From the NCBI RefSeq assembly GCF_034676545.1, contig NZ_JAUCBZ010000011.1, forward strand, positions 47,433 to 111,432: 64,000 bases of DNA, read 5' to 3'. Source of the stretch: Pararhodobacter sp. (GTDB lineage Bacteria; Pseudomonadota; Alphaproteobacteria; Rhodobacterales; Rhodobacteraceae). Positions 14,400 through 62,264 of this stretch are shown one piece after another. Position numbers and translations under genes: made by a program. The notes below the pieces were generated by a model. That model ran no database searches. It was not told where the DNA came from and saw only the letters and a list, made by a program, of their open reading frames with translations. Within the stretch, counting starts at the first letter, position 1; each line of letters opens with the position of its first letter.

Positions 14400-15109
14400 T
14401 TCTCTTCTCCCTCGGTTGTCGTGTGCAGCGGCGCCTTGTCCAAGGCGATGTCGAATGCCTCCTGGAACCGCGCGCGGAAGGCCGGGCCCATGACCCGCGC
14501 CAAACCAAGAACCCCAAGCGGATCGTGCCGGGCGGCCAGGTCGGCTGCAAAAGGCGGTCGCAGGGTCAAGGTCACGCTGGTCGGATGCTTGCCCCGTGCA
14601 CCGCGAGGTTCACTGACTTCGGGCATGCCATCGCGTTCCCAGTCGTCAAAGGCCTCGTCACGCAGTCCCTGCGCCACGCGACGGATCAGGAACTGGACCG
14701 AGCACCGCGCCACTGAGGCCCAGGCTTCAGCGAGATGGGCTTGCCTGGCGGTGAGCGACACCGCGACATAGACGACCTGACCCCGGGCCGTTGCGGATGG
14801 GGCAGGCACCGCATGGCGCTGCGCCAAGTGCAGTGGTGTCCGCGGTTCACCCTCCTCTTTCCGGGCTTCTTCTTGGCCGCGGATGGGCAACCCGCCATCA
14901 TCATCGCGTTGGGGCATGACATGTGCGGCGGCTGTCACGATTGCCGGTTGCTCGGGCTTCGATTCTGGCCGGGAGCAGACCGGCGCCGACGGCATCGCGC
15001 TCGGTCTTTCAACCTCCGCCGGGGGCGCGACCATCCCACCAAACCCAAGCTTCGCTGAAAAACCCGCATCCTGCCGGATGATCCGCATCTGATCTTTACG
15101 CGGTGCCAT
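14396..15109 (-). CDS. putative partition partner (ParB-function analogue) downstream of parA; no canonical ParB motif seen
   Basis: 237 aa. The start overlaps the parA stop (TAATG). Called from position only. Confidence 0.45.
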   Translation of the reverse strand: MAPRKDQMRIIRQDAGFSAKLGFGGMVAPPAEVERPSAMPSAPVCSRPESKPEQPAIVTAAAHVMPQRDDDGGLPIRGQEEARKEEGEPRTPLHLAQRHAVPAPSATARGQVVYVAVSLTARQAHLAEAWASVARCSVQFLIRRVAQGLRDEAFDDWERDGMPEVSEPRGARGKHPTSVTLTLRPPFAADLAARHDPLGVLGLARVMGPAFRARFQEAFDIALDKAPLHTTTEGEEK

Positions 15110-15855
15110 TATGCGACCACCGCCGGGGCCGCGATCAACTGATCGATTTCGTCGAGAAGCTCCCCGGCCTCCTTCACGGCTGTCTGCAGATGCGCCGCCA
15201 AGCCGCGATTTGGCGTCTTGTCCGCGATCGGGCCGAGGAGCCCTTCCTTGTCCATCCGGACATAGGCGCTGCGATTGGACAGCCAGGCCTCGCAGGCAGG
15301 CAGCGACCGGAAGAGTTCATCCGCCACCGCGCGCTCCGCTTCAGAGAGCCGGACCTGCACGCGACTGAACACCACGGAGAAGCCGGCAAGCTCATCCGGA
15401 TTGTCGACCCGCCCGCGCAGCTTCAAATACCAGTTGGCAGTCTCGAGCGTCTCGCTGAGATCGCCGCGCGACAGCATCATCGGGCAGATGATCCGGTGGG
15501 CGGCAACGGCCAGCACATCCTGTGCCTCTGACCCGCCGCCGAAAGTGTCGATCAGGATCAGATGCTCCTGGTCTGGCTGTTCATAGATATGGTCAATCGC
15601 CTCGACGACCCGGTGGGCATCAAGTGTGTGGATCACCTCAACATGGGGTGACCAGTTTCCGGCCTCTTGCCCCGCCTGCATCCACTTGAGGCAAGACTTC
15701 GAGGCATCCGTGTCGAAGATCGTGACCGTCTCGCCGCGACTTGCTGCGGCAGAGGCAAGGGCGCGGCAGAGCGTGCTCTTGCCCGATCCGCCCTTCCTGT
15801 TCATCACCAGCACAACCCGTATTCCGTAACCCATACCACCTTCCTCACCTCGCAT
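15109..15855 (-). CDS. parA: ParA/MinD-family partition ATPase
   Basis: Deviant Walker A VVLVMNRKGGSGKSTL and later LILIDTFGG. The start may be the Met at 15834. Confidence 0.85.
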   Translation of the reverse strand: MRGEEGGMGYGIRVVLVMNRKGGSGKSTLCRALASAAASRGETVTIFDTDASKSCLKWMQAGQEAGNWSPHVEVIHTLDAHRVVEAIDHIYEQPDQEHLILIDTFGGGSEAQDVLAVAAHRIICPMMLSRGDLSETLETANWYLKLRGRVDNPDELAGFSVVFSRVQVRLSEAERAVADELFRSLPACEAWLSNRSAYVRMDKEGLLGPIADKTPNRGLAAHLQTAVKEAGELLDEIDQLIAAPAVVA

Positions 15856-16736: not shown

Positions 16737-16794
16737 TGGGTAAAATTCCCTTGTTTTATTGGACTATTCTTGGGTTCCGTGGTAGGTCTTCGGC

Positions 16795-18447: not shown

Positions 18448-18779
18448 TGGCCCGCGTCACACACACCTACACGATCGACGAGGTCGCCAAAATGATCGGC
18501 GAAAGCCCCGAGCTCATCGAGATCACCAGCGCCAATTCCGACAACATCGATTACGGCGAGATGATCTGGGTCGACAACGGCACCGAGGAAGGGATCAAAA
18601 CCTTCACGGACCGCGGCATCGAATGCCTGCAGGAGCTCCTTGCAGACATTCGAACATGGGATGGCGGCATCCTCGAGTTCCTCCGATATGAGCAGTGTGA
18701 TCCGGCAGTTATCGAACGCATCATGGCTGACCAAAAAAATGATGAGCCGGAAAACCTTCGCCACAGCGAAGCAACATAA
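18447..18779 (+). CDS. acidic 110-aa passenger ORF inside IS66 copy 1
   Basis: The ATG overlaps the tnpC stop (TGATG). It lies inside the right inverted repeat of the element. No recognisable motif. Confidence 0.45.
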   Translation: MARVTHTYTIDEVAKMIGESPELIEITSANSDNIDYGEMIWVDNGTEEGIKTFTDRGIECLQELLADIRTWDGGILEFLRYEQCDPAVIERIMADQKNDEPENLRHSEAT

Positions 18780-18811
18780 CTGCGGCCTACGCCGGATGCT
18801 TACTTTATTCC

Positions 18812-19212: not shown

Positions 19213-19824
19213 GTGCTTGATCAAGGGCTGAAAGAAGGGGATAGAGAAGGTGGCAGGAAATGCGATGTGTCTACAAATAATCGGTGGCGGAAGTTGGCAG
19301 AAAAATCAGAGCCGCGCAAAATACGACTTAAGTCTGGGTCCGGTGTTTCAGCCAAAGCGAATTGCGATCTGGCTGATTCTGCAGCGCAGCAACGGGCGCA
19401 CCGCGGGCGGCCGCGAGTCGAGAGCTTGGGCCAGGTTGTAAGTTGCCGTCTGCCTGCCGAAGAGCTTCAAGCCTTCGATGCGCTCTGCACCCAACTCGGC
19501 GCGAAATCCCGCTCTGACGGTGTGAGGTCGGTCGTGCGGATGGCCTCGGGCTTCCTCGAGTTCAGCCGGGAAGACAGCGCGCGGCTGGAAGAGATCCGCC
19601 ACGAGTTGGCGAAGATCGGTACCAACGTGAACCAGATTGCGCTGGCGGCAAACCGGGGCCGGGCGCCGATGGTGCGGGCGCAATGGGCATCGGTCGAAGA
19701 ATTGCGCCGGTCGCTGCCAATGGTGGCGAAGATGTTGAGCCAGATCATCGCGGAACGCCGGCGGCAGGGCGTGGCGCTGTTCCGCAAGTTTGTCGAAATC
19801 CAGGAGGGTGCGCGCCATGGTTAA
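19213..19824 (+). CDS. mobC: MobC-family relaxosome accessory protein
   Basis: VSCRLPAEELQAFDALCTQLGAKSRSDGVRSVV (RHH-like) followed by EIRHELAKIGTNVNQIALAANRG, typical of MobC. GTG start is uncertain. Confidence 0.75.
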   Translation: MLDQGLKEGDREGGRKCDVSTNNRWRKLAEKSEPRKIRLKSGSGVSAKANCDLADSAAQQRAHRGRPRVESLGQVVSCRLPAEELQAFDALCTQLGAKSRSDGVRSVVRMASGFLEFSREDSARLEEIRHELAKIGTNVNQIALAANRGRAPMVRAQWASVEELRRSLPMVAKMLSQIIAERRRQGVALFRKFVEIQEGARHG

Positions 19825-21643
19825 GCCCGGATCGCGTCCGATCGGGCTGGCAGAGGCTGTTCTAGGCGACCTCGACTTTCTGCGTCCCCAGTCAGGGCGC
19901 GTGAAACCCGGTCCCTCTTCTTCCTCTCGGCAGGGCTTTCGATTCTCGCCGCGCGCCAGCCAGCTGTGGCGGTTTTCGCTGGGATCGAACGCCGCGGTCA
20001 TCAAGAAGATCGGCAAGGGTGGCACGGCGAACGCGAAGGAGCTGGCGGCCCAGATGGATTATCTGTTCTCGAAGTCGGCATCGATCTTTGGCAACGGGGT
20101 CGTGCTGGATGCAGATGCCAAGGGGCTGACCAAGGACGAACGAAAAGACATCATCGGCGACTGGGTCGAAGATTGGCGTGGGTCGCCCAAGAACGGGCAC
20201 ACCAGCCATCTGCTGCTGAGCTTTCCGTCCCATGTGCGGCCGGAGAAGGCCAAGCTGATTGCCGAGGCCTGGGCCTTCGAGATGTTCCAGTCGGGCGACC
20301 ATCAGGACGATATCTGGTCCTATGTCGCGGCGCTGCACACCGACCGGGCGCATCCGCATGTCCATATTGTCGTGAACAACCGAGGCACCCTGAATGACAG
20401 CTGGTTCTTCATGGCGAGGGAACATGTGTTCAACCTCGACGTGATGAAAACGTGCATGGTGGCCATTGCGGCGGAAGAAGGGGTGTTTCTGGACGCGACC
20501 TCGCGCGCGGAACGGGGGCTTCTGACCTATGGCCCCTCGCGGGCAGAGATCGAACGGGCGCGGGAAGAAGGTAGGGCACCGGAGGAACGGCCGCGCAAGG
20601 GTAGGGCGCTGGAGGATGCACTTGCCACGATGGCACGCACGGCGGACACCATGCGCAACCTCAGTCATGTGGCGGCTCTGACCGGGCTGCCGGAGATCGC
20701 CGAGAAGATTGCCAAGGCTGAGGAAGTACTTCGGCAGGGAGGGGTACTTTCACCCTTCCCGGCCGAGGCGGCGACGCTGGAGCGTGCTGATCTGGAGCGG
20801 CATTTCAGCGGATGGATGACCGAGACCGAAGGCAGGATCCGCAAGGCGCCAATCGCGGAGCGGAAGGGCCTGCGGGATGAGCTTTATGGCTATGCCGTCG
20901 ACATCGCACGTGGGCTTGGCGATGCCCGCGGCGCGCAGCTTCTGCAGATGATGCCGCAGTCGGTGATTTACGGCATGGCGCTCGAAGGCGACGCCCTGAC
21001 GCGGGGGCGTGCGGAGACGACCCTGCAGCCCGGGGCGGCGGAGCGGCTGCGCGCGGAGATCGTGGCCGGCGCGAGTGCACTTGGCCTGAGCGGCGAGCGC
21101 ATCGCCATCCGTCTGGAAACGGGCGCGGCGAACGCCTGGGAAGAGCGGGATTGGGTGCGCAGCGATCTTCTGCTCCTCGCCGGACGGCGACGACTGGACC
21201 TGCGCGACCCGGAGCAGGGACGGCGCATGGCCGGGGAGCTGCAGGGGTTTTATGACCGAGCGGCGGCGGCGATTGACCATACCGTTACCCATGAAACCGC
21301 GCCTGAGAACGACCGGCTTGTGCGCGCGCTGCGGTCCATGGGACGCATCATGCAGGCCGAGGGGAAGGTCGGGTTCCGCAACGATACCCATGCCGGGCGG
21401 TTCGCGGCGGAATTGCGGGCGCGATATGGGGCGGGCATCGTGACAGACCTCGCCGCAGGCCGGACAGATGCGCTGGCGCAGGATGTCGGGGATCAGGCCG
21501 AACGCCACCGGATCGCCCGCGCAGTGGTCTCAGCCGCGAAATCGCATGTGGCCTTGGGACTGACTTTGCGGCAGGCGACGGTGGCGGAGCGCGAGTTGGC
21601 CGGACAATCGGAGCGCAAGGGCGTGACGGATTGGGAGCTGTGA
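19817..21643 (+). CDS. MOBQ/VirD2-type relaxase
   Basis: SHLLLSFP...ALHTDRAHPHVHIVVNNRG (HxDxxxPHxH histidine triad). ATG at 19817 has AGGAGG 8 nt upstream and overlaps the end of mobC. The ORF track starts at a TTG at 19790. Confidence 0.85.
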   Translation: MVKPGSRPIGLAEAVLGDLDFLRPQSGRVKPGPSSSSRQGFRFSPRASQLWRFSLGSNAAVIKKIGKGGTANAKELAAQMDYLFSKSASIFGNGVVLDADAKGLTKDERKDIIGDWVEDWRGSPKNGHTSHLLLSFPSHVRPEKAKLIAEAWAFEMFQSGDHQDDIWSYVAALHTDRAHPHVHIVVNNRGTLNDSWFFMAREHVFNLDVMKTCMVAIAAEEGVFLDATSRAERGLLTYGPSRAEIERAREEGRAPEERPRKGRALEDALATMARTADTMRNLSHVAALTGLPEIAEKIAKAEEVLRQGGVLSPFPAEAATLERADLERHFSGWMTETEGRIRKAPIAERKGLRDELYGYAVDIARGLGDARGAQLLQMMPQSVIYGMALEGDALTRGRAETTLQPGAAERLRAEIVAGASALGLSGERIAIRLETGAANAWEERDWVRSDLLLLAGRRRLDLRDPEQGRRMAGELQGFYDRAAAAIDHTVTHETAPENDRLVRALRSMGRIMQAEGKVGFRNDTHAGRFAAELRARYGAGIVTDLAAGRTDALAQDVGDQAERHRIARAVVSAAKSHVALGLTLRQATVAERELAGQSERKGVTDWEL

Positions 21644-24609: not shown

Positions 24610-24817
24610 TTGGGTGAGATAACACATAAAGTTCCGGGGGAGCTATGGGCTCCGAGCCGCAGGCTGCGGCACGGAATCAGGTCACTTGGCTTGCTTATTC
24701 TTCCCGCTGGCCGGGGCAGGTGAGCGCGGCCCGTGTCTGCCGGTCGCCTTGCGCCAAACATCCGGCGAGAATGGCAGCTATGCGGGGGAAACCCGCCGAC
24801 ATCGCTGTTGAGTTCAC

Positions 24818-38107: not shown

Positions 38108-38442
38108 CGACCCGTCCCCGCCTTGCCCTTGCGGCCCTGATCGCGCTGGCCCAGCCGGCGCTGGCGCAGACGGTGGCCGATCCGGCGAACATCTTCGGCC
38201 TGCCGGGCGGCGACGGCACCGCCGGCATCGAATCCGGCACGGCGGTTATCGACAACTCGGCCGCCGTGGCCGAACTTGTCCCGCTGCGCCAACGCTTTGC
38301 CGAGTTTCGCGCCGCGGGCTTTCCGCTGCCGGATGTGGCCGATCTTGATGCCTACAACCCCGAAACCCTGCTTCAGGCGGCGCGGCTGATCGAGGGGCAG
38401 GAAATCCCTGCACCGCAGCGGCCGACCTGTCGATGTTCCTGA
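38104..38442 (+). CDS. 112-aa signal-peptide protein (possibly the N-terminus of the next ORF)
   Basis: MTTRPRLALAALIALAQPALAQT. ATGA overlap with the upstream gene and a 10-nt overlap with the downstream ORF. Confidence 0.5.
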   Translation: MTTRPRLALAALIALAQPALAQTVADPANIFGLPGGDGTAGIESGTAVIDNSAAVAELVPLRQRFAEFRAAGFPLPDVADLDAYNPETLLQAARLIEGQEIPAPQRPTCRCS

Positions 38443-39732: not shown

Positions 39733-42312
39733 ATGACCACACAAGCAACCCGTCTTGCCTGCACCGCCGCGGTGGCTCTCGCGCTGTCGCTGGGCCTTGC
39801 CGCGCCCCTTGCGGCCCAATCGTCGACCGACACCGTCGCCATCGCCCGCAGCGAGGCGCCCGCGGGCTGGTCGGGGCAGATGTTCCGCGGCATCGCCTTC
39901 GCGCTGCCCCCCGGCTGGCAGGAAATGGGCCGCAGCGACGAGAACGTGATCTACTTCGGCGGCGATGTCGCCACCCGCACCGGTCCCGGCTTCGGCCTGA
40001 TGCTGGAAGACGACCCGGACCAGACCTTTTCGGGCAGCACGATCGTCGAATTGGGGCAGGTGACGTTCGAGAACGGGCGGGTCTTCCGTCGCATTTCCTC
40101 TTCGGTCACCGAATCCGGCGTGGAGATGTGGGCCGAGATCCTGATCTCGAAGGTCCCGGTGTCCGGAGACGATCATCTGGTCATCGTGCAAAGCGCCTAT
40201 GGCGACGCACTTGACCCGTATCGGTCGGTGCATGCCGGCATCCTCGCCTCGCTGGACCTGCCCGCGCCGGGGTCCGTGCTGCGCGAGCCGGTGCTGGGCG
40301 GTGCCTTTGTCGCCCCGGTCGAAGGCACATGGGACACGAAAAGCCACAGCGACGACGAGGTGCTGACCTACGAACAGCGCGACCTGGCCGGCGAGGTCAC
40401 GCTTTACCGCTATGCCGCCGATCCGGCAACGGGCCATTTGAACAGGTGGTATCTGCCGTCGGATGTCGCGGGCCAGCCGGTCACGCTCATGGACCAGCCG
40501 GCGCTGCTTTACGAATGGACCCAGCGGTCGAACCGGTTCTCCGACGGCAGCGACGCCGATACCACCACCCGCATCTTCGTGTTCGAAACCTGCCTGCCGG
40601 GCCCCGATACGCTGGCCATCGGGTTCGAGGGGCTGCCCTCGTTTTACCGGTCGGAACAGGTGGCGCAGCTTGTGGACGCGATAGAACCGGCGCGCGGCGA
40701 TGCCGCTTGCGGCGCGGCGAACCTGCCAGCCGGGGCCGTTGCCGGTTCCCCGGGAGCCCGCCCGGACGGGCTGGCGGGTTTCCAGGCCGTTGGTGTGCCG
40801 GCCCCCACCGCGCCGGCCGCAAAGGCCGAAGGGACGGCGCTGAATGGCATCCTGACCTACAGCGCCCGCGAGGGATGGATCGCCATGTCGGGCGAGGGCA
40901 CGCTGACGCTGATGCACCCGGACGGGCGGGGGGTGGTCACGGTGGCGCGCGGCGCCGCGGTCCTGCCGCCAAACGGCCTCGCCGCGCTGGTGCCGCCCGG
41001 CCGCCTGCCCAGTTTCTTCGGCGACTATTACATGGAGTGGACCCAGTTCGGCTGGCCCTCGACTTCGGCCGAGTTCATGGACAACGGCCAGCCGGTCACC
41101 GGCTGGCACTTCCTGAACATCTCACGCAACTGCCTGCCGGGGCAAGAGCCGGTGGCGTTGTATTGGGCCGGGATCAACAGGTTCCTCAGCGGAGACACGC
41201 TGCGCGACTTGCTGATGGGCCTGCGGTTCAACTGGCCCGAGGGGATGGAGGAATGCGCCCTGAAGGATGCGGGAGTGGGCGCCGCCTTCTCTGGCCTGCC
41301 CGCAGAGCCCGCGCCCGAGCACTCGGCCGCGCCCGAACCCGCGCCCCAACCCCAGCCGCCCGTCGCCGCAGAGGCCGAACTGCTGCTGCCCCCGCCGCCG
41401 CCCCCGGTCATGCCCGTAGAGGAACCGGCCGAAGACCCGGACGCCTTCATCGAAGGCGAGGCCGGCTACACGCTTTACCGCAACGGGCGCTATGGCACCT
41501 TCATCGAATACCCCGCCAGCTACTTCCGCGCTGAGCCGCCGCCGGACAGCGGCGACGGCCGCACCTTCGTGTCGGCGGACGGCCAGTCGCAGTTCTATGT
41601 CTTCGCGCAGTACAACGCCCTTGGGCTGACACAGGACGAGATGATGCGCCAGGATATCGAACAGGGTGGCACCGACAGCGTGACCTACCGCAAGTCGGGC
41701 GAAGGCTGGTATGTGCTGTCGGGCTATGGCGATGGGGGCGTGATCTACTACCGCAAGGTCATCCTCGATCCCTCGGGCCTGGTTCAGGTGTTCGAGATCG
41801 CCTATCCGCCGTCCCTGAAGGAGGCGTTCGATCCGGTCGTAACCTACATGGCCAACAGTTTCGGCCCCGGAACCTCGACCGGCGACTGGACCCAAGGTGT
41901 CGATCCGGCCTGGGATGACGAGGTCACGAAAGAACCTGTTCGGGTGGACCGCCTGACGAGCCCCGCCCGCGGCACAGACTTGCGCAAGGCGCTGATGGCG
42001 GCCGCGCGCGGACCCATCGAGGCGGAAATCGGCCTAAGCATCGTCTTCGTCGCCTCGGTCCTGCGCACCGACGGGACCTGGGCCTATCTGCAGGCCGTCC
42101 CGCACAACCCCGACGGCAGCAGGATCAACTGGGCGAATACACCCTACGCCGCCGAGATGAAGAAGGGCGTCATGAGCGATACCGCCATGGTCCTGATGCG
42201 GAAGGTGCAGGGGGAATGGACCGTCGTCGACCACATCTTTGGGCCGACCGACGTCTACTGGCTGAACTGGGCCAATGCCTACGAACTGGACGAGGCGCTG
42301 TTCACGCCCTGA
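39733..42312 (+). CDS. 859-aa secreted protein of unknown function
   Basis: Signal peptide MTTQATRLACTAAVALALSLGLAAPLAAQS. xPxGW modules (EAPAGWSGQ, FALPPGWQEMG). Pro-rich linker PEPAPQPQPPVAAEAELLLPPPPPPVMP. C-terminal module GYTLYRNGRYGTFIEYPASYF...GDGRTFVSADGQSQFYVFAQYN. Confidence 0.65.
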   Translation: MTTQATRLACTAAVALALSLGLAAPLAAQSSTDTVAIARSEAPAGWSGQMFRGIAFALPPGWQEMGRSDENVIYFGGDVATRTGPGFGLMLEDDPDQTFSGSTIVELGQVTFENGRVFRRISSSVTESGVEMWAEILISKVPVSGDDHLVIVQSAYGDALDPYRSVHAGILASLDLPAPGSVLREPVLGGAFVAPVEGTWDTKSHSDDEVLTYEQRDLAGEVTLYRYAADPATGHLNRWYLPSDVAGQPVTLMDQPALLYEWTQRSNRFSDGSDADTTTRIFVFETCLPGPDTLAIGFEGLPSFYRSEQVAQLVDAIEPARGDAACGAANLPAGAVAGSPGARPDGLAGFQAVGVPAPTAPAAKAEGTALNGILTYSAREGWIAMSGEGTLTLMHPDGRGVVTVARGAAVLPPNGLAALVPPGRLPSFFGDYYMEWTQFGWPSTSAEFMDNGQPVTGWHFLNISRNCLPGQEPVALYWAGINRFLSGDTLRDLLMGLRFNWPEGMEECALKDAGVGAAFSGLPAEPAPEHSAAPEPAPQPQPPVAAEAELLLPPPPPPVMPVEEPAEDPDAFIEGEAGYTLYRNGRYGTFIEYPASYFRAEPPPDSGDGRTFVSADGQSQFYVFAQYNALGLTQDEMMRQDIEQGGTDSVTYRKSGEGWYVLSGYGDGGVIYYRKVILDPSGLVQVFEIAYPPSLKEAFDPVVTYMANSFGPGTSTGDWTQGVDPAWDDEVTKEPVRVDRLTSPARGTDLRKALMAAARGPIEAEIGLSIVFVASVLRTDGTWAYLQAVPHNPDGSRINWANTPYAAEMKKGVMSDTAMVLMRKVQGEWTVVDHIFGPTDVYWLNWANAYELDEALFTP

Positions 42313-44181: not shown

Positions 44182-45558
44182 GTGCCTACAGAGCAAACGC
44201 TACGCGAGCATTTCTTTTACGTTGCTGTAGCCCGGTTCGTTTTCCTGCACCCGCAACATGGCGTCGTTTCCGTGCGGGATCCGATCAGACTTGCAGACGC
44301 AGAGCAACTTGGCCTTTCCCCGCTGTTGATCTACGGCCTCAGCGTAGCAGGCCTTCCCCTGCGTTGGATGACCTTTTCAACAGTTGTTGAGCCCAGGCCC
44401 ATCTTGTCCGTGCTGCAGGAGGCATGGTCGCAGGCTGACGGCCTGCGCGGCCTGCCGGACACGCTGCGGGTCAACCGCCATCTCGCCGCCGCCTGCCCCG
44501 ATTTGACCTCAAGCCTGGCAAAGATCGGCGTGAATCTCAGGATTACCAATGCCGCGGATAAGACCCATCCGGCTGCATTGCGATCAGCGCAGGACGCCGC
44601 CCGCTGGTTGCTGGACCGCAGCAGTGGCAAATCCGCTGATAGAGACCCGGTGCTGGCGCTCAATGAAAATGCTGCGCATGACCATCGTTACGACAGTCAG
44701 GGCGGCGCGCTCACCACAGCCCCCGCAAAAACACGGCCGCAGATTGAAGAGTGGCTTGCGCTCCCGGTTCAGGAAGCCGGGTTGCTCCCCTTGGAAAAGA
44801 TGGACTGGACACCCGGGCCATGGCTCTTTCCCCAAGAGACCTCAATACCACCGAAGCAACCGCGGTACTTTCACCCCGACGGCTTCGGCGGGAGGGTTTG
44901 GCTGCTTACCGGTCAAGGGGATGACGTCGACCAGACGGAGGTTGACGATGATCCGATCAGCGACGGTCTTGAAGAAGTTGCTGCGCTGGCTCGCAACCTC
45001 GTTGAGTGCTGGCCAAACCCTCCCGCCGAAATCGCAAGCGAAGTCGGGATCACGCTTCGACAACTCCAGTGGTTCCTCTCGGGCCGGGCTGATCTTTCTA
45101 GCAGCCAGCGCTACCGCCTCGAAGAGCTTCTCGGCATAGGCATGGATGAGCGCTCAGGCTACCTAACCGCACGTGGCCCCTATGTGCTGATCGCGCGCAA
45201 GCCCCAGGCACTGGAGGCCGTCTATACCGAGATTTCTCACGGGGGTGACGCAAACCCCTGGGAGCTGCTTCCCAGCACTGGTGCAGCCGATCCAAGCTGG
45301 CGATATATCCTGATCAATACCTATGGGGCCCCACCCAGCTTCGTCATGGTTCCCAGGGGCGATCGGATTGCGGATCGGCTCGAGGATCTGATCCTCAACT
45401 TCGCCGGCCCCCTCTCCGTCGCCCGACCATTCTACCAAGAGGTCGTCACAACCTGCGCTCGCGCTTGCCGCAACCCTAAAGCGAACGTTACGTCGATGAC
45501 CGAGTTCGTGCTGCGCTACCAGCGGCACTGGACAGATTGTGCCTGGCAGCCGGTGTAG
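44182..45558 (+). CDS. 458-aa hypothetical protein with an internal XRE-like HTH
   Basis: GTG start with GGAG upstream. Segment PAEIASEVGITLRQLQWFLSGRADLSSSQRYRLEELLGI looks like HTH_3. The rest is unassigned. Confidence 0.55.
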   Translation: MPTEQTLREHFFYVAVARFVFLHPQHGVVSVRDPIRLADAEQLGLSPLLIYGLSVAGLPLRWMTFSTVVEPRPILSVLQEAWSQADGLRGLPDTLRVNRHLAAACPDLTSSLAKIGVNLRITNAADKTHPAALRSAQDAARWLLDRSSGKSADRDPVLALNENAAHDHRYDSQGGALTTAPAKTRPQIEEWLALPVQEAGLLPLEKMDWTPGPWLFPQETSIPPKQPRYFHPDGFGGRVWLLTGQGDDVDQTEVDDDPISDGLEEVAALARNLVECWPNPPAEIASEVGITLRQLQWFLSGRADLSSSQRYRLEELLGIGMDERSGYLTARGPYVLIARKPQALEAVYTEISHGGDANPWELLPSTGAADPSWRYILINTYGAPPSFVMVPRGDRIADRLEDLILNFAGPLSVARPFYQEVVTTCARACRNPKANVTSMTEFVLRYQRHWTDCAWQPV

Positions 45559-48300: not shown

Positions 48301-50283
48301 TCAAACCTCCATGCCTGTGAGCTTCTGAGAAAACTTGCTCATCTTGGCAACTGCGATCGAGACGGATGGCTTCAGGGCATCGAGATCAACCTCGGGCGAG
48401 GCGACCGCTTTTCCTTCGGCCTGCACTTCGGCATCGGTTTCTGCCCGCGCCGCCTTCGCTGACTTTTCCTGCCGCGACACAACCTCGGCTGCCAATTTCG
48501 GCTCAGGCTCCACCGGGGTGTCCGGCTTCGCCTTCTCAGGTCGCACAAAATCGACCACTATCCTTTCGGCCAATCGGCGCTCCAGCGCTTCCATCCGCGC
48601 GGTCAGCACCTGAACTGCGGCAGCTTCCTTGGGCGGATAGGGCAAGGGCCCGGACTGCGCCTCAAATAGCGCCTTGAAGGTCGGGTCCTGGAAATACACG
48701 ATCCGATGGACGAGGAGCGGGTTTTGCCGTTCCGGGATGAGGACGGCCTGATCCGGGTTCAGCCGCCGGACTTCGTCGGGGGTCAGGAGGGGACGCTCCT
48801 CCATTCGCCGGCTGACCGAGCGTCGCTGCATGAAGTCCCGATCCCGGGAAACACTGTCCGACACCGAGAGCTTCGTCGTCTTCCCCAACGCATCCGAAAT
48901 CTCCCCCGCCGTCTTTTTGTCGTTGGCCGCGAGGTAGAGCTTCATGCCGGCAGCGGACTCGAGGGACATCCGGACGTTTTCGCCATAGATGTTGTCGAGG
49001 CCGGGGATCGACTGGGTGATGATCGACACTCGCGCGCCGTGACCGGCGAGCTGCTTCAGTGCCTGCTCGACGATGGGCATCGGCCCAAGCTGGTCGAATT
49101 CATCCAGCATGACCATGACGGGCCAGGGTTCGGATTTTGGGTCGGGGAGGGTGGAACGCATCGTGGCGATGAGCTCGCCGAAAAACAGACGAACGAGCGG
49201 CGACAGGGTGCGGATGTCATCGGCGTTGACGACGACATAGATCGACATCGGGTGCTTGCGGAGATCCGTGAAGGAGAAGTCGTTGCCGGAGGTGGCGCGA
49301 TCTACCGCCGGGTTGTTCCAGAGCGTCATGCCCGCGCCGCCCAAGACCGAGGCATGAGAGGACAAGGTCCGGTCGGAGTAGCCTGCAAACTTGCGGAAAG
49401 TCTGGGCAGCGTTGGGGTGCTTCACCTCCTCGGCATGCTCGCCGTAAACCTCCTGGGTAGCGCCCCGGCCAAAGAGGATGCGGCTGATCTCGCCGATGGT
49501 GGGCTTGCCCCGTTCAATGGCCAGAAGGCCAGCAGCCACGAACAGCTCGCGCCCTTCGGTCAGGAAGTCGCCCGCCGTCCCCTTGTCCGAAACTGTCAGG
49601 AAGTAGTCCGAGATCTTGGCGAGTTCCGTGTAGCGCTGTTCCAAGTTTTCAATGCGGGCAACGCGTTCGAGCGGGTTGTAGCGATGGGTCGGATGTTCAA
49701 AATCGAATGGTGAGAAGCGATAGACCGCATCGCCCTCCGCTTGCCGGTGCCGAGACGTTGCTTCGAAAATCTCCCCCTTCACGTCGAGGACGACGATGCT
49801 GCCATTGAAGAGGAGGGTGTTCGGGATGACATAGCCCACGCCCTTGCCGGCGCGGGTGGGCGCGACAACCAGACAATGCGGGAACTTCTGGAACGTGGCG
49901 CTGACGTAAGGCGCGCGCTTTGAAGGTGCCCCGAGCTTGCCGAAGACCATGCCGGCGCCCAAGGGCTGCAAGAGACCATTCGCCTTCATTTCAGGGCGGG
50001 CCTGGAACTTGGCCTGACCATAGCCTGTGAGCTGCTGGCGGAAGGTCAGGGCGACGGCGGCAATCGTGAAGAGAACGGTCGAGGCACCGACGATCTGCCA
50101 GGGCAGAACCCAAGGCACGGACGACAACCGCGCGAAACCCGGGAATTCTTCGATCAGGACGAAGATGCCGGTCGCGTTCGGATCGCGGCCCAAGATCAGG
50201 TTCAGAGCGAGGCCGCCGGCAATGAGGCCCACGAGGAGCCCGGCCGACAGACCGAGCGGGAGCAACAGCGCGATACGGTGCAT
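48301..50283 (-). CDS. virD4: type IV coupling protein VirD4/TraG
   Basis: N-terminal TM segments, Walker A VVAPTRAGKGVGYVIPN, Walker B VMVMLDEFDQLG. Confidence 0.9.
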   Translation of the reverse strand: MHRIALLLPLGLSAGLLVGLIAGGLALNLILGRDPNATGIFVLIEEFPGFARLSSVPWVLPWQIVGASTVLFTIAAVALTFRQQLTGYGQAKFQARPEMKANGLLQPLGAGMVFGKLGAPSKRAPYVSATFQKFPHCLVVAPTRAGKGVGYVIPNTLLFNGSIVVLDVKGEIFEATSRHRQAEGDAVYRFSPFDFEHPTHRYNPLERVARIENLEQRYTELAKISDYFLTVSDKGTAGDFLTEGRELFVAAGLLAIERGKPTIGEISRILFGRGATQEVYGEHAEEVKHPNAAQTFRKFAGYSDRTLSSHASVLGGAGMTLWNNPAVDRATSGNDFSFTDLRKHPMSIYVVVNADDIRTLSPLVRLFFGELIATMRSTLPDPKSEPWPVMVMLDEFDQLGPMPIVEQALKQLAGHGARVSIITQSIPGLDNIYGENVRMSLESAAGMKLYLAANDKKTAGEISDALGKTTKLSVSDSVSRDRDFMQRRSVSRRMEERPLLTPDEVRRLNPDQAVLIPERQNPLLVHRIVYFQDPTFKALFEAQSGPLPYPPKEAAAVQVLTARMEALERRLAERIVVDFVRPEKAKPDTPVEPEPKLAAEVVSRQEKSAKAARAETDAEVQAEGKAVASPEVDLDALKPSVSIAVAKMSKFSQKLTGMEV

Positions 50284-50285
50284 GG

Positions 50286-52496
50286 TCAGAATTCCCGGTC
50301 CTTGGCATGTGTCCGGTCATGAACAGGCGCGCGCGCATGTTCCGGCGGCTTGTTCGCGGCCTCGGCAGCCATCCGGCGCTCTGCAGCTTCGACCTCATGG
50401 GCGCTGAGGCCGAGGGAAGGGTGTTCCTTTGCCGCGGAAACAACGGCCGCTGCCATAGCCTGGCGGGCGCTCGCGTCGGGAACATCCTTGGCCAAGGCAT
50501 CGGTGCGCCCGGCGGCCATGTCTTTCAGGACGGAAGCGCCATAACGCTCCTTCATCTCCTCAGTGAAATCCCGTGCTTGCGTCTCATTGCGGAAGACGAC
50601 GGAGCCTTGCTGGGCATGGAGTTTCGCCATCTTGTCCAGGGCCTCGACCATGGGATCACGGGCTCGCGACAGATCGACGCCGCGAGCGGACTGGATCATC
50701 TCAGCGGCGCGTTCGTAGAAGCGATCCAGGCGTTCGGCGGCCGCGCTGCGGCCTTGCGGGTTGTCGAGGTCATAGCCATGACGCTTGGCGACGTCGCTGA
50801 GATCGGATTTCACCCAGGCTTCTTCTTGGCGGGCGTTGGCGGCACCAGTTTCGAGACGCTTGCCAAGTTTTTCGGCGTCGATGCCTGCGAGGCCGGCGTT
50901 GAGGGCCAGACTTGCCTGCAGATTGCCGGCACCGCCGGTTTGAAGTGCCGTTTCTTCGCCTGCTATCGACAACGTCGTTGGGTTGATCGCCGTGCTGTAG
51001 AGTGTCGAACGTGGAGGGGCCTCGCGCCCGGCCTGATCTCTGTCGAGACCAAAGGCTGCCGCGGCTTCCTTGGCGATACCCAGCATTTCGGATCGCAGCT
51101 CTTCCTGTTGCTCGGACGGCAGTCGGTCGATCCGGGCATCCGACTGCGCCACCCAGGCGGAGATCGTCCGCGCGGGATCAGCCGTGAAGTCGCTGTGCAA
51201 CCTTTCGTCTTCGACATGGGCCGTGAGAACCGGGCTCTCGGCCAAATGCTTGGCCAAGGTCTCACTCAGGGGCCCTTCATCCGGGAACTTGGCCAACACC
51301 TCAACACTCCCATCGCGGCCATAGGAGGTGACGGCCAGGAGTTCATCGGGCAGAAAGCCTCTCGAACCTTCGCCGTCGACAAACCGGCCGGTGCCAAGGG
51401 TGGCTTCGGCATCGGCGATATGCTCGGCCACGACCTGCCGAAACGCGGTATCGGCGACCAGACGTTCGGCAAGATCGCGACTCGCTTCCGTGTCTCGGCC
51501 AAGGGTCAGGACGAGTTGGGCCTCTTCGCCCGCGTAGATCGCGGTTTCCGGGCGGGGGAGTTCCGGCTGTTCGCGATGCTCCAATACGAGGCCCGAGGGC
51601 ACGCGGTCCGCATCATCGTCCGTGTCATGCTCCATCGCCGCGGCCCGGCTGATGGCAATCTCGAGCCCCTCTTCGCCGCCTTCGTAGAAATCCCAGGCGT
51701 GGCGCAGGGCATCGCGGCTGGTCGCAAAGGCCCGGTCCGAAAAGCTGATCTCCGTCTCTCCTTCCGGCACCCTTGCCTCAAAGCCTGCATGTAGACCCCT
51801 GTCGGTTGCGACAGTCACTGGGCGCAATTCAACATTCCGGTCAGTGGTCACCCAATCTCCGGTCGCAACCACTTGCGGCTTCTCCGCCGTGATCACCTGA
51901 CCAACCTGCGCTTCCGCTTCCACCACCCCTTCCCGCGCCTTCACTGCCGCCTGCAAAATGGGTCCCGGTGCAGGTTCCTCCGTCCGATCTGACCAAAGGC
52001 TTGCTGCCTTCTCGGGTTCGCGGCGTGCGTAGGCCTCGAGGTCATCTTTCAGCACGGCATCCAGCCGCTCGACAACGGTTTCACCGTCCCGACCGGCTTG
52101 GACCCTCTCAAGACGCTCGGAGATCGAAGCCTCCATCGCCGCCAGGAACCCGGCCCGGAATTCCGCATCCGGGGCATGCGAGTCCGGCAGCGATTTGAAA
52201 TACCGCGTTTCGCCGCCTTCGTGTGTCCCATGGAGTTCCGTGCGGGCCATGGTCCGGGCGGTGTTGCCGTCGACATGGGTCACCGAAGGCCGCTCAACCG
52301 GATCGGCCCGGAAGAAGGCCTCGCCGGCAAGACGCGGGTCTTCGAACTCCTGTGAAGACCCGGAGAAGGTCAAGCGGACGGAGAAGTATTCCTTCTTCCG
52401 CTCCGCGGCCCCAATGGTTGCACCTGCTTCGGGTTCTTGGGTCGCGGCGCGAACTGCGGACTCTTTCAGATGCTGGGCGTCAATGTCCTGATCCAT
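50286..52496 (-). CDS. 736-aa T4SS-operon protein sharing only the C-terminal module of the MOBQ relaxase (no nuclease domain)
   Basis: C-terminus RLETGAANA...FYERAAEMI...FRNETQARDFTEEMKERYGASVLKDMAAGRTDALAKDV...AVVSAAKEH aligns by eye with relaxase residues encoded at about 21100-21600. The N-terminal ~500 aa lack an HUH/His-triad motif. The stop lies 2 nt before the virD4 ATG. Confidence 0.65.
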   Translation of the reverse strand: MDQDIDAQHLKESAVRAATQEPEAGATIGAAERKKEYFSVRLTFSGSSQEFEDPRLAGEAFFRADPVERPSVTHVDGNTARTMARTELHGTHEGGETRYFKSLPDSHAPDAEFRAGFLAAMEASISERLERVQAGRDGETVVERLDAVLKDDLEAYARREPEKAASLWSDRTEEPAPGPILQAAVKAREGVVEAEAQVGQVITAEKPQVVATGDWVTTDRNVELRPVTVATDRGLHAGFEARVPEGETEISFSDRAFATSRDALRHAWDFYEGGEEGLEIAISRAAAMEHDTDDDADRVPSGLVLEHREQPELPRPETAIYAGEEAQLVLTLGRDTEASRDLAERLVADTAFRQVVAEHIADAEATLGTGRFVDGEGSRGFLPDELLAVTSYGRDGSVEVLAKFPDEGPLSETLAKHLAESPVLTAHVEDERLHSDFTADPARTISAWVAQSDARIDRLPSEQQEELRSEMLGIAKEAAAAFGLDRDQAGREAPPRSTLYSTAINPTTLSIAGEETALQTGGAGNLQASLALNAGLAGIDAEKLGKRLETGAANARQEEAWVKSDLSDVAKRHGYDLDNPQGRSAAAERLDRFYERAAEMIQSARGVDLSRARDPMVEALDKMAKLHAQQGSVVFRNETQARDFTEEMKERYGASVLKDMAAGRTDALAKDVPDASARQAMAAAVVSAAKEHPSLGLSAHEVEAAERRMAAEAANKPPEHARAPVHDRTHAKDREF

Positions 52497-52561: not shown

Positions 52562-53548
52562 TCAGTCCTCGAGCCCGGGGAAATACATCTCCATGATCCC
52601 GCGGCGGTCGCCTTGGCGGCCCATCTGCAAGATCACGTCGATCGAGGTCTCGAGGTACCGGATGACCTCGGCGAAGCTGAGTTTGGTTCCCTGCGCCATG
52701 ACGAGAAGCGCCAGCCGGTCCATTGCTTTCCTCGCCGAATGGGCGTGGAGCGTCGTGAACGAACCCGAGTGCCCGGTATTGATCGCATCGAGAAACGTCG
52801 CGGCCTCCGCCCCGCGCAGTTCGCCGAGGATGATCCGGTCGGGCCGAAGCCGTAAGGTCGCCTGCAACAGTTTGTCTGCGGAGCGGGGCGAGGCCTCGTC
52901 GCGCTGCGCGATGAGGCTCACCGTATTGGGCTGGCCCGGCAAGAGTTCTAGGGAATCCTCGATTGTGATGATGCGCTCGTCTGACGCAACCATCTCCAGA
53001 AGCTTGCGGCCAAGCTCGGTCTTGCCTGTCGAGGTGCCGCCCGAGACGATGACGTTCAGCCGTTCTGTGACGAGACGCCCGAGGAAGGCATCGACATCCG
53101 CCCCCTCCGACCCGGCGCGGATTTCCGCGATCATGACCCGCCGCTCTTCTTCCAGGGATTTTTCTTGGCCCCGCAAGAAGCTGAAGGATCGCGGCGCGCG
53201 CTTTTGGGCGCCCTGCCGGGACCGGAACACCCGGATGCCAATGACCGTGCCGCCGGAGACGGCGGGCGTGCCAACCACCTGACAGCGCAGCATCAGATCT
53301 CGGTAGCGCACCGCCGCCGACACGAGGGGTGCGGCTTCCGTGAAGGTGTTCGCGGTTGAATTGGCGATCTGGGCGGCGAGATCGCGCACCGAACGCGCGG
53401 GTAGGGGCGGAAGCCCGCTCGGGCCCATGTGAATTTGCCCCGACCGTTCCACCCAGATCGTGCCATCAGCATTGATCGCAAGCTCCATGACGGCCGGGTC
53501 AGAGAGTGCCGCGTCGAGCTGCCCGAGATAGGTATCGAGGTAGCTCAT
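52562..53548 (-). CDS. virB11: VirB11 secretion ATPase
   Basis: Walker A VSGGTSTGKTELGRKL. RPDRIILGELRG and TGHSGSFTTLHA are characteristic boxes. Confidence 0.9.
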   Translation of the reverse strand: MSYLDTYLGQLDAALSDPAVMELAINADGTIWVERSGQIHMGPSGLPPLPARSVRDLAAQIANSTANTFTEAAPLVSAAVRYRDLMLRCQVVGTPAVSGGTVIGIRVFRSRQGAQKRAPRSFSFLRGQEKSLEEERRVMIAEIRAGSEGADVDAFLGRLVTERLNVIVSGGTSTGKTELGRKLLEMVASDERIITIEDSLELLPGQPNTVSLIAQRDEASPRSADKLLQATLRLRPDRIILGELRGAEAATFLDAINTGHSGSFTTLHAHSARKAMDRLALLVMAQGTKLSFAEVIRYLETSIDVILQMGRQGDRRGIMEMYFPGLED

Positions 53549-59921: not shown

Positions 59922-62264
59922 TCATTCCTTCCAGAATTTGGGCCGCGCGGCATAGTCAGCGCCGAAGGCATTGATCCCGGCCTGACCGCCGCCAAGCGCT
60001 GTCAGCAAAGGCCCGAGCGCCTTCAGATCGACGTTCAGAACGGTCGAACCGCGTGGGGAGCGCGACAGAACCAGCCGCTGGCCTGGGATCGGGTTCAGGA
60101 CGAAGTCGAGCTCGCCATCGGTCAGGCGGAAACTTTCGTAGTCGGCCGAGGCCGCCTCGCCGTTCGGGAACAGGAGCTGGTTCGGCAGCGCTTCCAGGAT
60201 CGACCGGGCTTTCGATCCCCGGATCTGGCTTGGGAACTGGGTCATCATGACGACGACCACATTCTTCTTCCGGGCCGTCACCAGCCATTCGGCGAGCTTC
60301 TTCGCGAAGTATTCGTCGTCGAGGACCTTCCAGGCCTCGTCGATCAGGATCAGCGTCGGGCGCTTTTCCTCGATCAGCATTTCGATGCGGCGGAAGAGAT
60401 AGCCGAGGATCGCGGTGCGCTCGGTGCCGAGATCGAGGATTTCGGTGAGATCGACCGCCGTCACATCATGGCTGGTGAAATCCACCACCGGCTCTTTCGC
60501 CTCTCCGAAGACCCAACCATAGCGGCCGTCCGGTCCCCATTCGCGGAGGCGCTGTGCCAGATCGAGGCCATCACCGACATCGCCGAATAGCTCCTGGAAA
60601 CTCTGGAAGTTCCGCAAACCCTCGCGTGCCTTGCCATTCTGCGCGATGGCAGACTTGAGCGCCTCGGACTGCAGCGGTGTCATGGGCCCGGAGCGGGATT
60701 CAAGGAGAGCAACCAGCCAGTCGAGAAGCCAGGCTTCCCCGCGCTCACCAGCCTCCGTCGCAAGTGGGTTAAGTCCTGTCGGGCGTCCCGCGCGGACTTC
60801 GGCATAGCGACCCCCGAGGGCATGCACGGCCATCTTCAATCCGGCTTCCTTGTCGAAGATGATCGTCCGGCCCCCTACCCTTTGGGCCTGGGCGGCAAGG
60901 AAGGCGACGGTCGTGGTCTTGCCCCCGCCAGATTTTCCGAGAACGAGGGTATGGCCGTTGGTCGGCTCCGCAGTCGGGTCCCCTGGCTCATGGAAGCTGA
61001 AACGGTGGAGTGATCCCTGCAGCGTCTGGAAAGCAGTGATCGGCGTCGCCCAAGGCAGGCGCGCCTTTTCCGTGCCGGTGTCCGCGGCATGAAGGGCCGC
61101 CATGTCCGCGAAATTGATCGACGACACTGTCATGTCGCGCGCCCGGTAGTCCATGTTGCCGGGATGCATGGCGAAGAAAGCCGCTTCGAGCGCCGTGACC
61201 TCGCGCACGAGCCGCATGCCATTCTGATGCGCGATGCCGCGGATGCGGGCGACCTCAGAGTCGAGCGCGGTTTCGGTTTCCGCAAAGACCGTGATTGTCA
61301 TCTGATGCACGCCAAAACCCAGCGTCCCGCTCTCGGCTTTGTCGGCCGCCTCGAAAAGCTGCGCCTCAACTGTGGCAGCGATATCCTCGGCCGAGCGCAT
61401 TTGCGCGACGCGGCGTTTCACCCGCTCGGCGATACTGCCGCGCTCGATGGGCGTGTAGCTGTGGGTGATGATCGTGTCCTGCGCGGCCCCAAGAGCATCA
61501 AGCATTCCGGGCCAGGTCGCATTGGCATAGGATTTGACATAGAGGACGGCGGCGAGTTTTGGGGTGGACGTCCCCTCTTCGATTTCGACCACGCCCTTGC
61601 CAAACTGCACGGATGCACCGGCGGCGTCTTCCGCAAGGAGGCAGTACGGGCTGCGCGGATGGTCCCGCAACTCACCGGTCAGAAGCGAGGCGTAAAAGCC
61701 GATCAGGCTTCCATCACTGATCTTCATCCTGCGGGTCTTGATGCCAAGACCGGTCTCAAGGATGGAGGCCACCTCGCGCAGTTCTTCCAGACGGCGGGCG
61801 GTGTCTTCGCCCCAGACCCGGGCCGCGGCCTTGCCGAACAATGGCACGGCCAGCGGCGCCACTTGCCGCCGGACGACCGTCAGGATCAGCACCGAGTCCT
61901 GCAGATTGCGGCGTGTAAGCTCCCGGCTCCAAGCCTTGTCGATGTCGGCCGCAAAGCTGAGCCCATGGATGGGCACGATGCCGGTGTCCGCTGGTCGCAT
62001 CATCCGGTGCAGATAGAAGGTGAACCGCTCGTCGAGCGTGTCGAGGAGATGCGCAAATCCCGCCCGAAGGGCTGAGACCGCAGCCGCGCCTGACGTGACG
62101 CCGTCGATGCCCGTCACTTCAAGTGACAGCATCAGCGCATTGTCCCGGGTTCGGACGACCTCGTCATCAAGCTCGATGACGTAAGGCAGATGGGCATAGA
62201 TCTTAGGGCTGGCCGGGATCAACCGCCCTGCCCTGCCCTTTGGCTGGTCCCGCTCAAGAAACAT
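59922..62264 (-). CDS. virB4: VirB4 ATPase
   Basis: 780 aa. Walker A LVLGKSGGGKTT, Walker B TLILIDEAWKVLD. Confidence 0.92.
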   Translation of the reverse strand: MFLERDQPKGRAGRLIPASPKIYAHLPYVIELDDEVVRTRDNALMLSLEVTGIDGVTSGAAAVSALRAGFAHLLDTLDERFTFYLHRMMRPADTGIVPIHGLSFAADIDKAWSRELTRRNLQDSVLILTVVRRQVAPLAVPLFGKAAARVWGEDTARRLEELREVASILETGLGIKTRRMKISDGSLIGFYASLLTGELRDHPRSPYCLLAEDAAGASVQFGKGVVEIEEGTSTPKLAAVLYVKSYANATWPGMLDALGAAQDTIITHSYTPIERGSIAERVKRRVAQMRSAEDIAATVEAQLFEAADKAESGTLGFGVHQMTITVFAETETALDSEVARIRGIAHQNGMRLVREVTALEAAFFAMHPGNMDYRARDMTVSSINFADMAALHAADTGTEKARLPWATPITAFQTLQGSLHRFSFHEPGDPTAEPTNGHTLVLGKSGGGKTTTVAFLAAQAQRVGGRTIIFDKEAGLKMAVHALGGRYAEVRAGRPTGLNPLATEAGERGEAWLLDWLVALLESRSGPMTPLQSEALKSAIAQNGKAREGLRNFQSFQELFGDVGDGLDLAQRLREWGPDGRYGWVFGEAKEPVVDFTSHDVTAVDLTEILDLGTERTAILGYLFRRIEMLIEEKRPTLILIDEAWKVLDDEYFAKKLAEWLVTARKKNVVVVMMTQFPSQIRGSKARSILEALPNQLLFPNGEAASADYESFRLTDGELDFVLNPIPGQRLVLSRSPRGSTVLNVDLKALGPLLTALGGGQAGINAFGADYAARPKFWKE

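Follow-up and report, generated by a model that had tools for sequence, protein, structure and literature searches.

Introduction

Recognition of VirD2-type relaxases by coupling proteins is poorly defined beyond a few models, among them the Arg-rich tails of Agrobacterium, the BID domains of Rhizobiales and the TSA/TSB signals of F-like systems. In alpha-proteobacteria, the BID domain and a short tail constitute a bipartite signal for type IV secretion systems (T4SSs) that is present on relaxases, on toxins adjoining VirB-like systems and on the Bartonella effectors (PMC6509941, PMC5675462). BID is a four-helix bundle of about 100-140 amino acids (aa) with a hook on top (PDB 4YK1-3). The toxins VbhT and PezT, which share BID with relaxases and are encoded beside VirB-like T4SSs, provide an experimentally proven precedent for the sharing of such a signal; the BID of VbhT derives from a relaxase, and the protein, whose gene immediately follows the vbh T4SS genes, is transferred during conjugation (PMC6509941, PMC5675462). 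Some Bartonella effector proteins (Beps) consist of BID domains only (PMC6509941). Here we analyzed a stretch of 64,000 nucleotides (nt) from Pararhodobacter sp. (contig NZ_JAUCBZ010000011.1), referred to as the window, and more specifically an open reading frame (ORF) at 50286..52496 on the minus strand that we call X. The ORF listing shows that X encodes a 736-aa acidic protein devoid of a nuclease and is the penultimate cistron of a virB/virD4 operon. As in the BID systems (VbhT, PezT/Zeta-BID, Beps and TraA relaxases; PMC5675462, PMC6509941), the relaxase shares a C-terminal domain with a protein that is not a relaxase, and the gene of this carrier directly follows the virB genes and adjoins that of the coupling protein.

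X and the relaxase share a C-terminal module

An earlier note on this DNA had aligned by eye the last 170-230 aa of X with the C-terminus of the relaxase encoded in the same window. The relaxase is a 617-aa VirD2-like protein (19790..21643, plus strand) with a Pfam Relaxase match at aa 113-198 (E 2.5e-10), an NCBIfam VirD2 match (E 6.7e-24) and the motif HTDRAHPHVH. Comparison of the two proteins by BLASTP gave a single strong segment between residues 439-716 of X and residues 333-610 of the relaxase, with 113 of 279 positions identical (41%), 57% positives and 2 gaps (E = 9e-50). The proposed similarity is far above chance and all the blocks that had been quoted lie inside the segment, so that the outcome which the earlier note had allowed for, two C-termini without a significant alignment, was not observed; the length had been underestimated, the common region being about 280 aa long. 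We refer to this region as the C module. It corresponds to 50349..51182 (minus strand) in X and is paralogous to the C-terminal half of the relaxase, where it occupies 20786..21619 (plus strand). The label MOBQ given earlier to the relaxase had to be changed as well: VirD2 gave the best NCBIfam score for the nuclease domain, TraI_MobP also scored, and homologous plasmids from Gemmobacter and Paracoccus are typed MOBP (PLSDB/MOB-suite), so that VirD2-like/MOBP fits better.

The module is rare. A profile made from the two window copies gave 105 matches among 1.84 billion representative proteins, and the long matches fell nearly all in two classes, either relaxases with the HxDxxxPHxH motif and a C-terminal module or nuclease-less proteins of the X type, hereafter called slot proteins for the position of their genes between virB11 and virD4. 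A tblastn search of the module against 72,556 plasmids returned matches in Rhodobacterales only. Five stand-alone matches of about 265-302 aa (P0154, P0155, P0158, P0163 and P0147) group with the relaxases and are candidate truncated gene calls; a protein of 3486 aa with 24 apparent module repeats (P0194) was discarded as a spurious match to a tandem-repeat translation. Some relatives are named "large polyvalent protein-associated domain" in UniRef, and this lead was followed and abandoned: no match to LPD7 (PF18821) was obtained with X, its C module, the C module of the relaxase or five relatives, even at E <= 10. Most copies of the module are acidic to neutral, the median net charge being -9 for the slot copies and -3 to -5 for the relaxase copies. 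In the window pair the isoelectric points (pI) are 5.2 for the module of X and 9.05 for that of the relaxase; a charge complementarity between an acidic slot module and a basic relaxase module, true for this pair, does not generalize to other copies.

The structure of the module was modelled with AlphaFold on residues 431-736 of X, using an alignment of 26 slot and relaxase sequences. The model has a mean predicted local distance difference test score (pLDDT) of 88.8 and a predicted template modelling score (pTM) of 0.60, and it is mostly helical with one 3-strand meander. It consists of two mostly helical subdomains, with a low-confidence loop at model residues 178-182. The combination of a high pLDDT with a moderate pTM fits the fact that the two halves are separable, as a relaxase of Roseinatronobacter described below possesses subdomain A only. 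Foldseek found no match in the PDB below E = 1, the best ones (E about 1) being designed helical repeats, and none of the 50 matches listed was a BID, XVIPCD or TraI entry; a profile search against PDB sequences also gave no match to the module. A BID fold was thus not detected at the sensitivity of Foldseek, which is limited for short helical bundles, nor by the Pfam and PDB profile searches. XVIPCD and TraI-TSA folds were rejected likewise, as neither Foldseek nor the PDB profile search returned such entries.

The two proteins also share a motif at their extreme C-terminus. In both classes, the module is followed by a variable linker rich in R, D and H and then by a conserved D-[W/R]-E-[R/L/F]. 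In the window, the relaxase ends in ...GVTDWEL (21620-21640, plus strand) and the linker and end of X, in ...KDREF, occupy 50289..50348 (minus strand). Among 39 distinct relaxase tails, D is found at position -4 in 31, W at -3 in 23, E at -2 in 32 and R or L at -1 in 33. The 26 slot tails are more uniform, with D at -4 in 25, R at -3 in 23, E at -2 in 25 and F or R at -1 in 25 (F in 18). An end of the form D-x-E-[RLFIM] occurs in only 2 of the 609 ORFs of the window (stop to stop, at least 60 aa), which are those of the relaxase and of X. The C-terminal 20 aa of X carry no net charge and the C-terminal 30 aa carry +2, compared to -1 for the last 30 aa of the relaxase. In the model of X, pLDDT is below 50 for the last 13 residues, and the linker that precedes the end is probably disordered. 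A conserved C-terminal peptide lying free on a flexible linker is what would be expected of a docking motif. The slot protein cannot be the receptor of this determinant, since the relaxase of a Paracoccus yeei plasmid has both the module and a DRER end on a replicon without a slot gene.

Slot proteins are encoded between virB11 and virD4

The minus-strand operon around X encodes a complete VirB/VirD4 system: two SLT transglycosylases, VirB4 (59922-62264, minus strand), a VirB5-like protein, VirB6, VirB8, VirB9, VirB10, VirB11, X and VirD4. The gene upstream of X is virB11 (52562..53548, minus strand; Pfam T2SSE, E 4.1e-33), and the gene downstream is virD4, encoding the type IV coupling protein (48301..50283, minus strand; Pfam T4SS-DNA_transf, E 5.6e-96, TraG-D_C and TrwB_AAD_bind). 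Exactly 2 nt separate the stop codon of X from the ATG of virD4, the junction reading GAC CGG GAA TTC TGA CC ATG. Both the ORF map and this junction agree with the place assigned to X in the earlier note, that of a penultimate virB cistron 2 nt before virD4. A GAAAGG ribosome-binding site lies 9 nt 5' of the ATG of X. Simple scans of the stretch from virB11 to the end of virD4 detected no promoter-like site, and terminator-like sites did not exceed what is expected from shuffled sequence.

Full-length X has about 340 cluster representatives (68-93% identity), all annotated as hypothetical and originating from Gemmobacter, Tabrizicola, Cereibacter, related Paracoccaceae and metagenomes. To place these genes in their context, one genome per species was scanned with a pattern derived from the two-sequence alignment, which yielded 57 loci that were annotated by BLAST against the window proteins. 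In 21 of 21 genome loci of the X type, the order is virB9-virB10-virB11-X-virD4 wherever flanks exist. The 37 relaxase loci have a different organization, with a VirC1-like gene on the minus strand divergent from mobC and the relaxase gene carrying the module, often followed by a gene for a UPF0149 protein. Both cassettes are found on the same contig in five cases (L002, L013, L017, L053 and L055). The order virB11-X-virD4 is also present, by annotation, in Gemmobacter fulvus p3 and Rhodobacter xanthinilyticus pEJ01, and a G. aquarius plasmid has the same arrangement according to the features under the DNA match.

Several relatives are much shorter than X. We looked up the contigs of eight shorter or module-only proteins and labelled the neighbouring genes by BLAST. 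P0254 (312 aa), P0252 (335 aa), P0167 (340 aa) and P0256 (548 aa) are encoded between virB11 and virD4; P0161 (312 aa), P0251 (534 aa), P0263 (492 aa) and P0262 (at least 440 aa) are encoded immediately 5' of virD4 on contigs that end upstream. A non-relaxase copy of the module is thus found directly upstream of virD4 for 8 of 8 metagenomic proteins checked. VirB11 and VirD4 encoded beside the module-only genes are only about 58-72% identical to their counterparts in the window, which indicates distinct plasmid lineages. Using the names N-dom, M1, M2, M3a and M3b for the N-terminal modules (described below) and C for the C module, the architectures extend from C only (312-340 aa) through M3a-M3b-C (about 445 aa), N-dom-M1-C (488 aa), M2-M3a-M3b-C (about 545 aa), N-dom-M2-M3-C (651 aa) and N-dom-M1-M3-C (677 aa) to the full set N-dom-M1-M2-M3-C, as in X (727-736 aa).

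X represents the longest version of a family without annotation, the virB11-virD4 slot proteins, whose genes lie on VirB/VirD4 plasmids (mating-pair formation type MPF_T) of Paracoccaceae. The invariant core of the slot gene is the relaxase-type module with its tail, preceded by a variable number of N-terminal modules, from 0 to 5. As module-only proteins occupy the same slot, the gene is centred on the module, with the acidic N-terminus as an optional addition; the picture drawn in the earlier note, that of a signal attached to a 500-aa cargo, needs revision in this respect. Members of the family are named "hypothetical protein" in all the databases searched; none of Pfam, NCBIfam and PHROG has a model for the family, and a literature search brought up nothing on it.

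The content of the slot also varies in other ways. In Paracoccus yeei NZ_CP020444 (L075), virB11 and virD4 are separated by a gap of 32 nt without a slot gene, and the relaxase has the module and ends in ...DRDRER. On the same replicon, a RelE/RelB toxin-antitoxin pair lies between the relaxase gene and virD4. In P. pantotrophus NZ_CP058692 (L077, 11917-12972), a slot protein of 351 aa retains 42 aa of subdomain A as its sole piece of the module (hhalign E 1.6e-4) and also has an M2-like stretch, which indicates that the mosaic family of slot proteins is larger than what a search with the module retrieves. On a Roseinatronobacter plasmid, mobC, the gene for a 947-aa relaxase and virD4 are contiguous and the relaxase gene overlaps virD4; this relaxase has subdomain A only (aa 420-497; 35% identity over 82 aa, E 2e-10), with LPD7 downstream at aa 593-683 in place of subdomain B. 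Whether the gene upstream of virD4 is normally a full relaxase, as had been asked earlier, receives a mixed answer: it is in Roseinatronobacter, and in P. yeei there is no gene in the slot.

The N-terminal region of X is a stack of optional modules

The whole of X has a net charge of -50 and a pI of 4.84, and residues 1-438 contribute -42. No part of X matched Pfam, NCBIfam, PHROGs or PDB sequences, and five relatives had no Pfam match even at E <= 10. The best conserved N-terminal module is N-dom (aa 35-131, FFRADPAERPSVTHVDGNTARTMARTE..KSLPDSHAPD; 52104..52394, minus strand), defined from alignments and modelled with a pLDDT of about 85-92. It is present in P0148, P0149, P0164 and P0176 and absent from P0256 and the module-only forms. 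The optional middle modules M1 (aa 132-200), M2 (201-295), M3a (296-362) and M3b (363-438), which together span 51183..52103 (minus strand), were delimited by their independent presence or absence in relatives. No internal sequence repeats were found among N-dom, M1, M2 and M3 (hhalign probabilities <= 7.5%), and a search with the N-terminal 438 aa retrieved the same close family only, among the 120 matches listed.

An AlphaFold model of the N-terminal 440 aa (pLDDT 72.7) shows five sheet-plus-helix units. Foldseek against the PDB gave no relaxase or HUH fold for this model (1-440), and a PDB sequence search was also negative. X gave no Pfam Relaxase match, and the motif HxDxxxPHxH is absent from the family member P0129 (regular expression). 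The description of the N-terminus as acidic and free of a relaxase motif therefore stands, as the charge of this region, the negative Pfam, NCBIfam and PHROG searches and the motif scan of P0129 all support it; a cryptic or divergent relaxase, an eventuality that the earlier note had kept in view, was not found by the Pfam, fold and profile searches. Foldseek matches to PUR-alpha/Whirly-like repeats that bind single-stranded DNA (ssDNA) were weak (E 0.3-1.4, probability <= 0.38) and were not used. Comparison of the N-terminal modules with the viral structures of BFVD yielded nothing informative.

All parts of X are under purifying selection

The ratio of nonsynonymous to synonymous substitution rates (dN/dS) was estimated pairwise by the Nei-Gojobori method on 16 orthologues (the window and 15 loci). 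The values are 0.086 (N-dom), 0.18 (M1), 0.13 (M2), 0.10 (M3), 0.14 (C module) and 0.13 (tail). Every part of X is thus under purifying selection, which argues against a decaying relic.

In the group formed by Gemmobacter, Tabrizicola and Stagnihabitans, the slot modules are 48-71% identical to each other and the relaxase modules 68%, compared to 33-41% identity between slot and relaxase modules, whether or not they are carried by the same replicon. These identities indicate an old duplication, after which the slot and relaxase copies were maintained as two separate and stable orthologous lines within the Gemmobacter/Tabrizicola group. Concerted evolution or gene conversion between copies of the same replicon was considered and is not seen in the identities of the Gemmobacter group. 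In a neighbour-joining tree of all modules, the relaxase and slot clades are not cleanly split at depth; as the tree includes unverified fragments, no conclusion was drawn from it.

Comparison with described recruitment signals

The arrangement found here is of a known type, in which a recruitment domain of a relaxase is reused on a T4SS-linked protein that is not a relaxase; what is new is the domain, the terminal motif, the strict slot, the module-only forms and the N-terminal stack. The resemblance to BID is found at several levels. The module is distributed as BID is, on relaxases and on non-relaxase proteins linked to VirB/VirD4-like T4SSs of alpha-proteobacteria; the BID signal is bipartite, with a folded helical domain and a short terminal tail, which recalls the module and its end; BID relaxases carry two units (BID1 and tBID2) and the module has two subdomains; and signal-only proteins exist in both families. 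The differences are equally clear. The module has neither sequence nor fold similarity to BID, the end of X and of the relaxase is an acidic D-x-E whereas the BID tail contains a positively charged stretch, the relaxase is a 617-aa VirD2-like protein and not a large TraA, and the N-terminal "cargo" of X is not a toxin or a known enzyme, the transfer of X being only predicted.

Other systems are more distant. The XVIPCD effectors of the Xanthomonas VirB/VirD4 T4SS (PMC8740702) are likewise marked for recruitment by VirD4 through a conserved domain at the C-terminus, at least about 120 aa long, but XVIPCD is carried by antibacterial toxins and is not shared with a relaxase, and Foldseek returned no structural match to it in the PDB. 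Folded relaxase domains, internal or C-terminal, also serve as T4SS recruitment signals in TraI of F/R1 (TSA/TSB) and as the internal signals of TrwC and MobA (PMC3912908); TSA and TSB, however, are 2B/2B-like helicase-associated folds of MOBF relaxases, are not duplicated on a separate protein and gave no match to the module in the Foldseek search. Polyvalent proteins of conjugative elements unite, in a single polypeptide delivered with DNA, several recognizable domains with enzymatic or anti-defence functions (PMC5512222). X stacks up to 5 N-terminal units, none of which matches a known domain. In RSF1010/R1162, the C-terminal part of the relaxase MobA is also produced as a separate polypeptide, RepB', a primase made from an internal start in the same gene. 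The copy on X is, in contrast, a diverged paralogous gene in the T4SS operon and has no primase signature. In Agrobacterium, virD3 is a poorly conserved gene of unassigned function located between virD2 and virD4, directly upstream of virD4. It resembles X in position, and no homology was detected, the tblastn search of the plasmid collection with the module having matched Rhodobacterales only.

Possible roles of X at the coupling protein

Four readings of X were weighed. We tentatively favour, as the likeliest of the four, that X is transferred together with DNA through VirD4 and bears an optional N-terminal cargo. The module and the tail would form the determinant by which VirD4 recognizes the relaxase-DNA complex; X would display the same determinant, be made together with VirD4 through translational coupling and hence be a second VirD4 ligand, most likely one that enters the recipient as a protein when the DNA is transferred. 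In that case the acidic N-terminal modules, being optional, would represent cargo, possibly acting on the nucleic-acid defences of the recipient. The same principle has been proven for proteins with a BID domain, VbhT among them, and this reading is consistent with the homology of the two modules, the rarity of the module, the strict slot, the 2-nt junction, the restriction of the terminal end to the relaxase and X among the window ORFs, purifying selection, and a variable modular N-terminus such as expected of exchangeable cargo. A number of observations weigh against it. The 312-340 aa proteins that consist of the module only are odd as substrates, being a signal without cargo, and fit a donor-side partner of VirD4 better; the T4SS of P. 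yeei, judged from its gene content, functions without a slot gene; the module resembles none of the proven T4SS recruitment domains (BID, XVIPCD, TraI TSA) in fold or sequence; the tail lacks the positive charge typical of VirB/D4 substrates, with no net charge over its last 20 aa and an acidic end; and the N-terminal modules match nothing known in PDB and BFVD structure searches, so that an activity in the recipient is conjectural. A broader proposal goes further and is doubtful: the module and D-[W/R]-E-[R/L/F] would represent a new, non-BID VirD4 signal of Rhodobacterales plasmids, and the slot proteins a new class of transferred proteins whose exchangeable acidic N-terminal modules act in the recipient, for example as nucleic-acid mimics or anti-defence factors, with the module-only forms as gatekeepers of the channel.

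The existence of module-only forms is the chief reason for ranking close behind transfer the possibility that X stays in the donor as an accessory protein, adaptor or regulator. X could be a relaxase mimic that primes, gates or competes at VirD4, or it could pair with the module of the relaxase to hand the relaxosome over, with the N-terminal modules tuning the process. Conservation of the slot gene centres on the module alone; X adjoins virD4 and is apparently translationally coupled to it, which suggests matched amounts of the two products; and X is acidic, as are many secretion chaperones and adaptors. Partners of coupling proteins such as TraM, TrwA and IcmSW/LvgA act in the donor. An obligatory adaptor is, however, contradicted by P. 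yeei-type plasmids, which have the relaxase module and tail but no slot gene, and the slot protein keeps the free C-terminal motif of the relaxase, as expected of a fellow ligand rather than of a bridge. In addition, the identity between the modules of X and relaxase within a replicon (35-41%) is not above that between replicons and thus gives no sign of co-evolution, although this is a weak test. That the module is a DNA-processing unit unrelated to VirD4 (for binding of oriT or ssDNA, relaxase oligomerization or strand re-joining), and X a relaxosome subunit encoded before virD4 by chance, appears improbable. The C-terminal halves of MOBP/MOBQ relaxases often carry DNA-related domains, as exemplified by the primase of RSF1010 MobA, and the separability of the subdomains in the 947-aa relaxase, where LPD7 follows subdomain A, would be compatible with such a unit; yet a module that is acidic to neutral seems ill suited to binding DNA, the slot gene always accompanies virD4 and is never found with the mobC-relaxase cassette, and a conserved free C-terminal peptide is typical of protein-protein docking. 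Finally, X might be the leftover of a relaxase gene that once preceded virD4 and is kept only for the translation of virD4. Roseinatronobacter, with its full relaxase gene directly upstream of and overlapping virD4, and the 2-nt gap between X and virD4 are in line with this origin. Such a leftover would nonetheless not be expected to show a dN/dS of 0.09-0.18 in every region, tail included, to keep a full-length module across lineages whose VirD4 proteins are only 55-72% identical, or to gain new conserved N-terminal modules, which makes this by far the least probable of the four explanations.

Whichever role X plays, a compact module and a four-residue end common to two otherwise unrelated plasmid proteins, one of them locked to virD4, constitute a testable candidate signal. 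It concerns the T4SS plasmids that abound in Paracoccaceae and roseobacters and that, by their transfer, shape gene flow in aquatic bacteria. Were the signal to prove portable, it could be used to deliver proteins through these systems, and definition of the family would improve plasmid annotation as well as mobility (MOB) and MPF typing.

The relaxase cassette and other genes of the window

The DNA-transfer (Dtr) cassette lies about 29 kb from X and comprises a VirC1/ParA-like gene (15109..15855, minus strand; Pfam VirC1, E 4.5e-25), a MobC/VirD1-like relaxosome accessory gene upstream of the relaxase gene (19213..19824, plus strand; Pfam VirD1, E 3e-6, and MobC, E 5e-6), the relaxase gene and, directly downstream of it, a gene for a 697-aa protein with a C-terminal UPF0149/YecA-like domain (21805-23898). 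mobC adjoins the relaxase gene in most of the 37 relaxase loci, and the VirC1/ParA-like gene, divergent from mobC, is kept in related loci. The UPF0149 protein is kept after the relaxase at 73-94% identity in many related Dtr cassettes; in other lineages, a DUF6880 (L072) or DUF1186 (L074) protein is found near the relaxase in its place. The virC1-mobC intergenic region, which probably contains divergent promoters and oriT, is uninterrupted (about 430 nt) in the related loci L021 and L058. In the window, an IS66-family element of about 2.9 kb (15926-18808; transposase 16795-18447) is inserted in it, about 70 nt upstream of the start of the virC1-like gene, and may have an effect on virC1 expression or on transfer. 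A gene for an RNA-ligase-family protein (23986-24627; Pfam RNA_ligase, E 6.8e-23) is located just after the cassette.

The remainder of the window contains several defence-related genes. A 1021-aa Eco57I/MmeI-like type IIG restriction-modification enzyme (1857-4922) adjoins an M.Eco57I-like methyltransferase (4919-6670), and in a Gabija-like defence pair (7310-11518) an OLD-family ATPase bearing AAA_15 and TOPRIM domains (7310-9328) precedes a UvrD-like helicase (9641-11518). The plasmid also encodes a Fic-family protein (11720-12775) that, unlike the Fic-BID effectors of Bartonella, has neither the module nor a D-x-E end. Four long ORFs lack a Pfam match; they are located at 34697-38107 (1136 aa), 38433-39704 (423 aa), 39733-42312 (859 aa) and 44182-45558 (458 aa).

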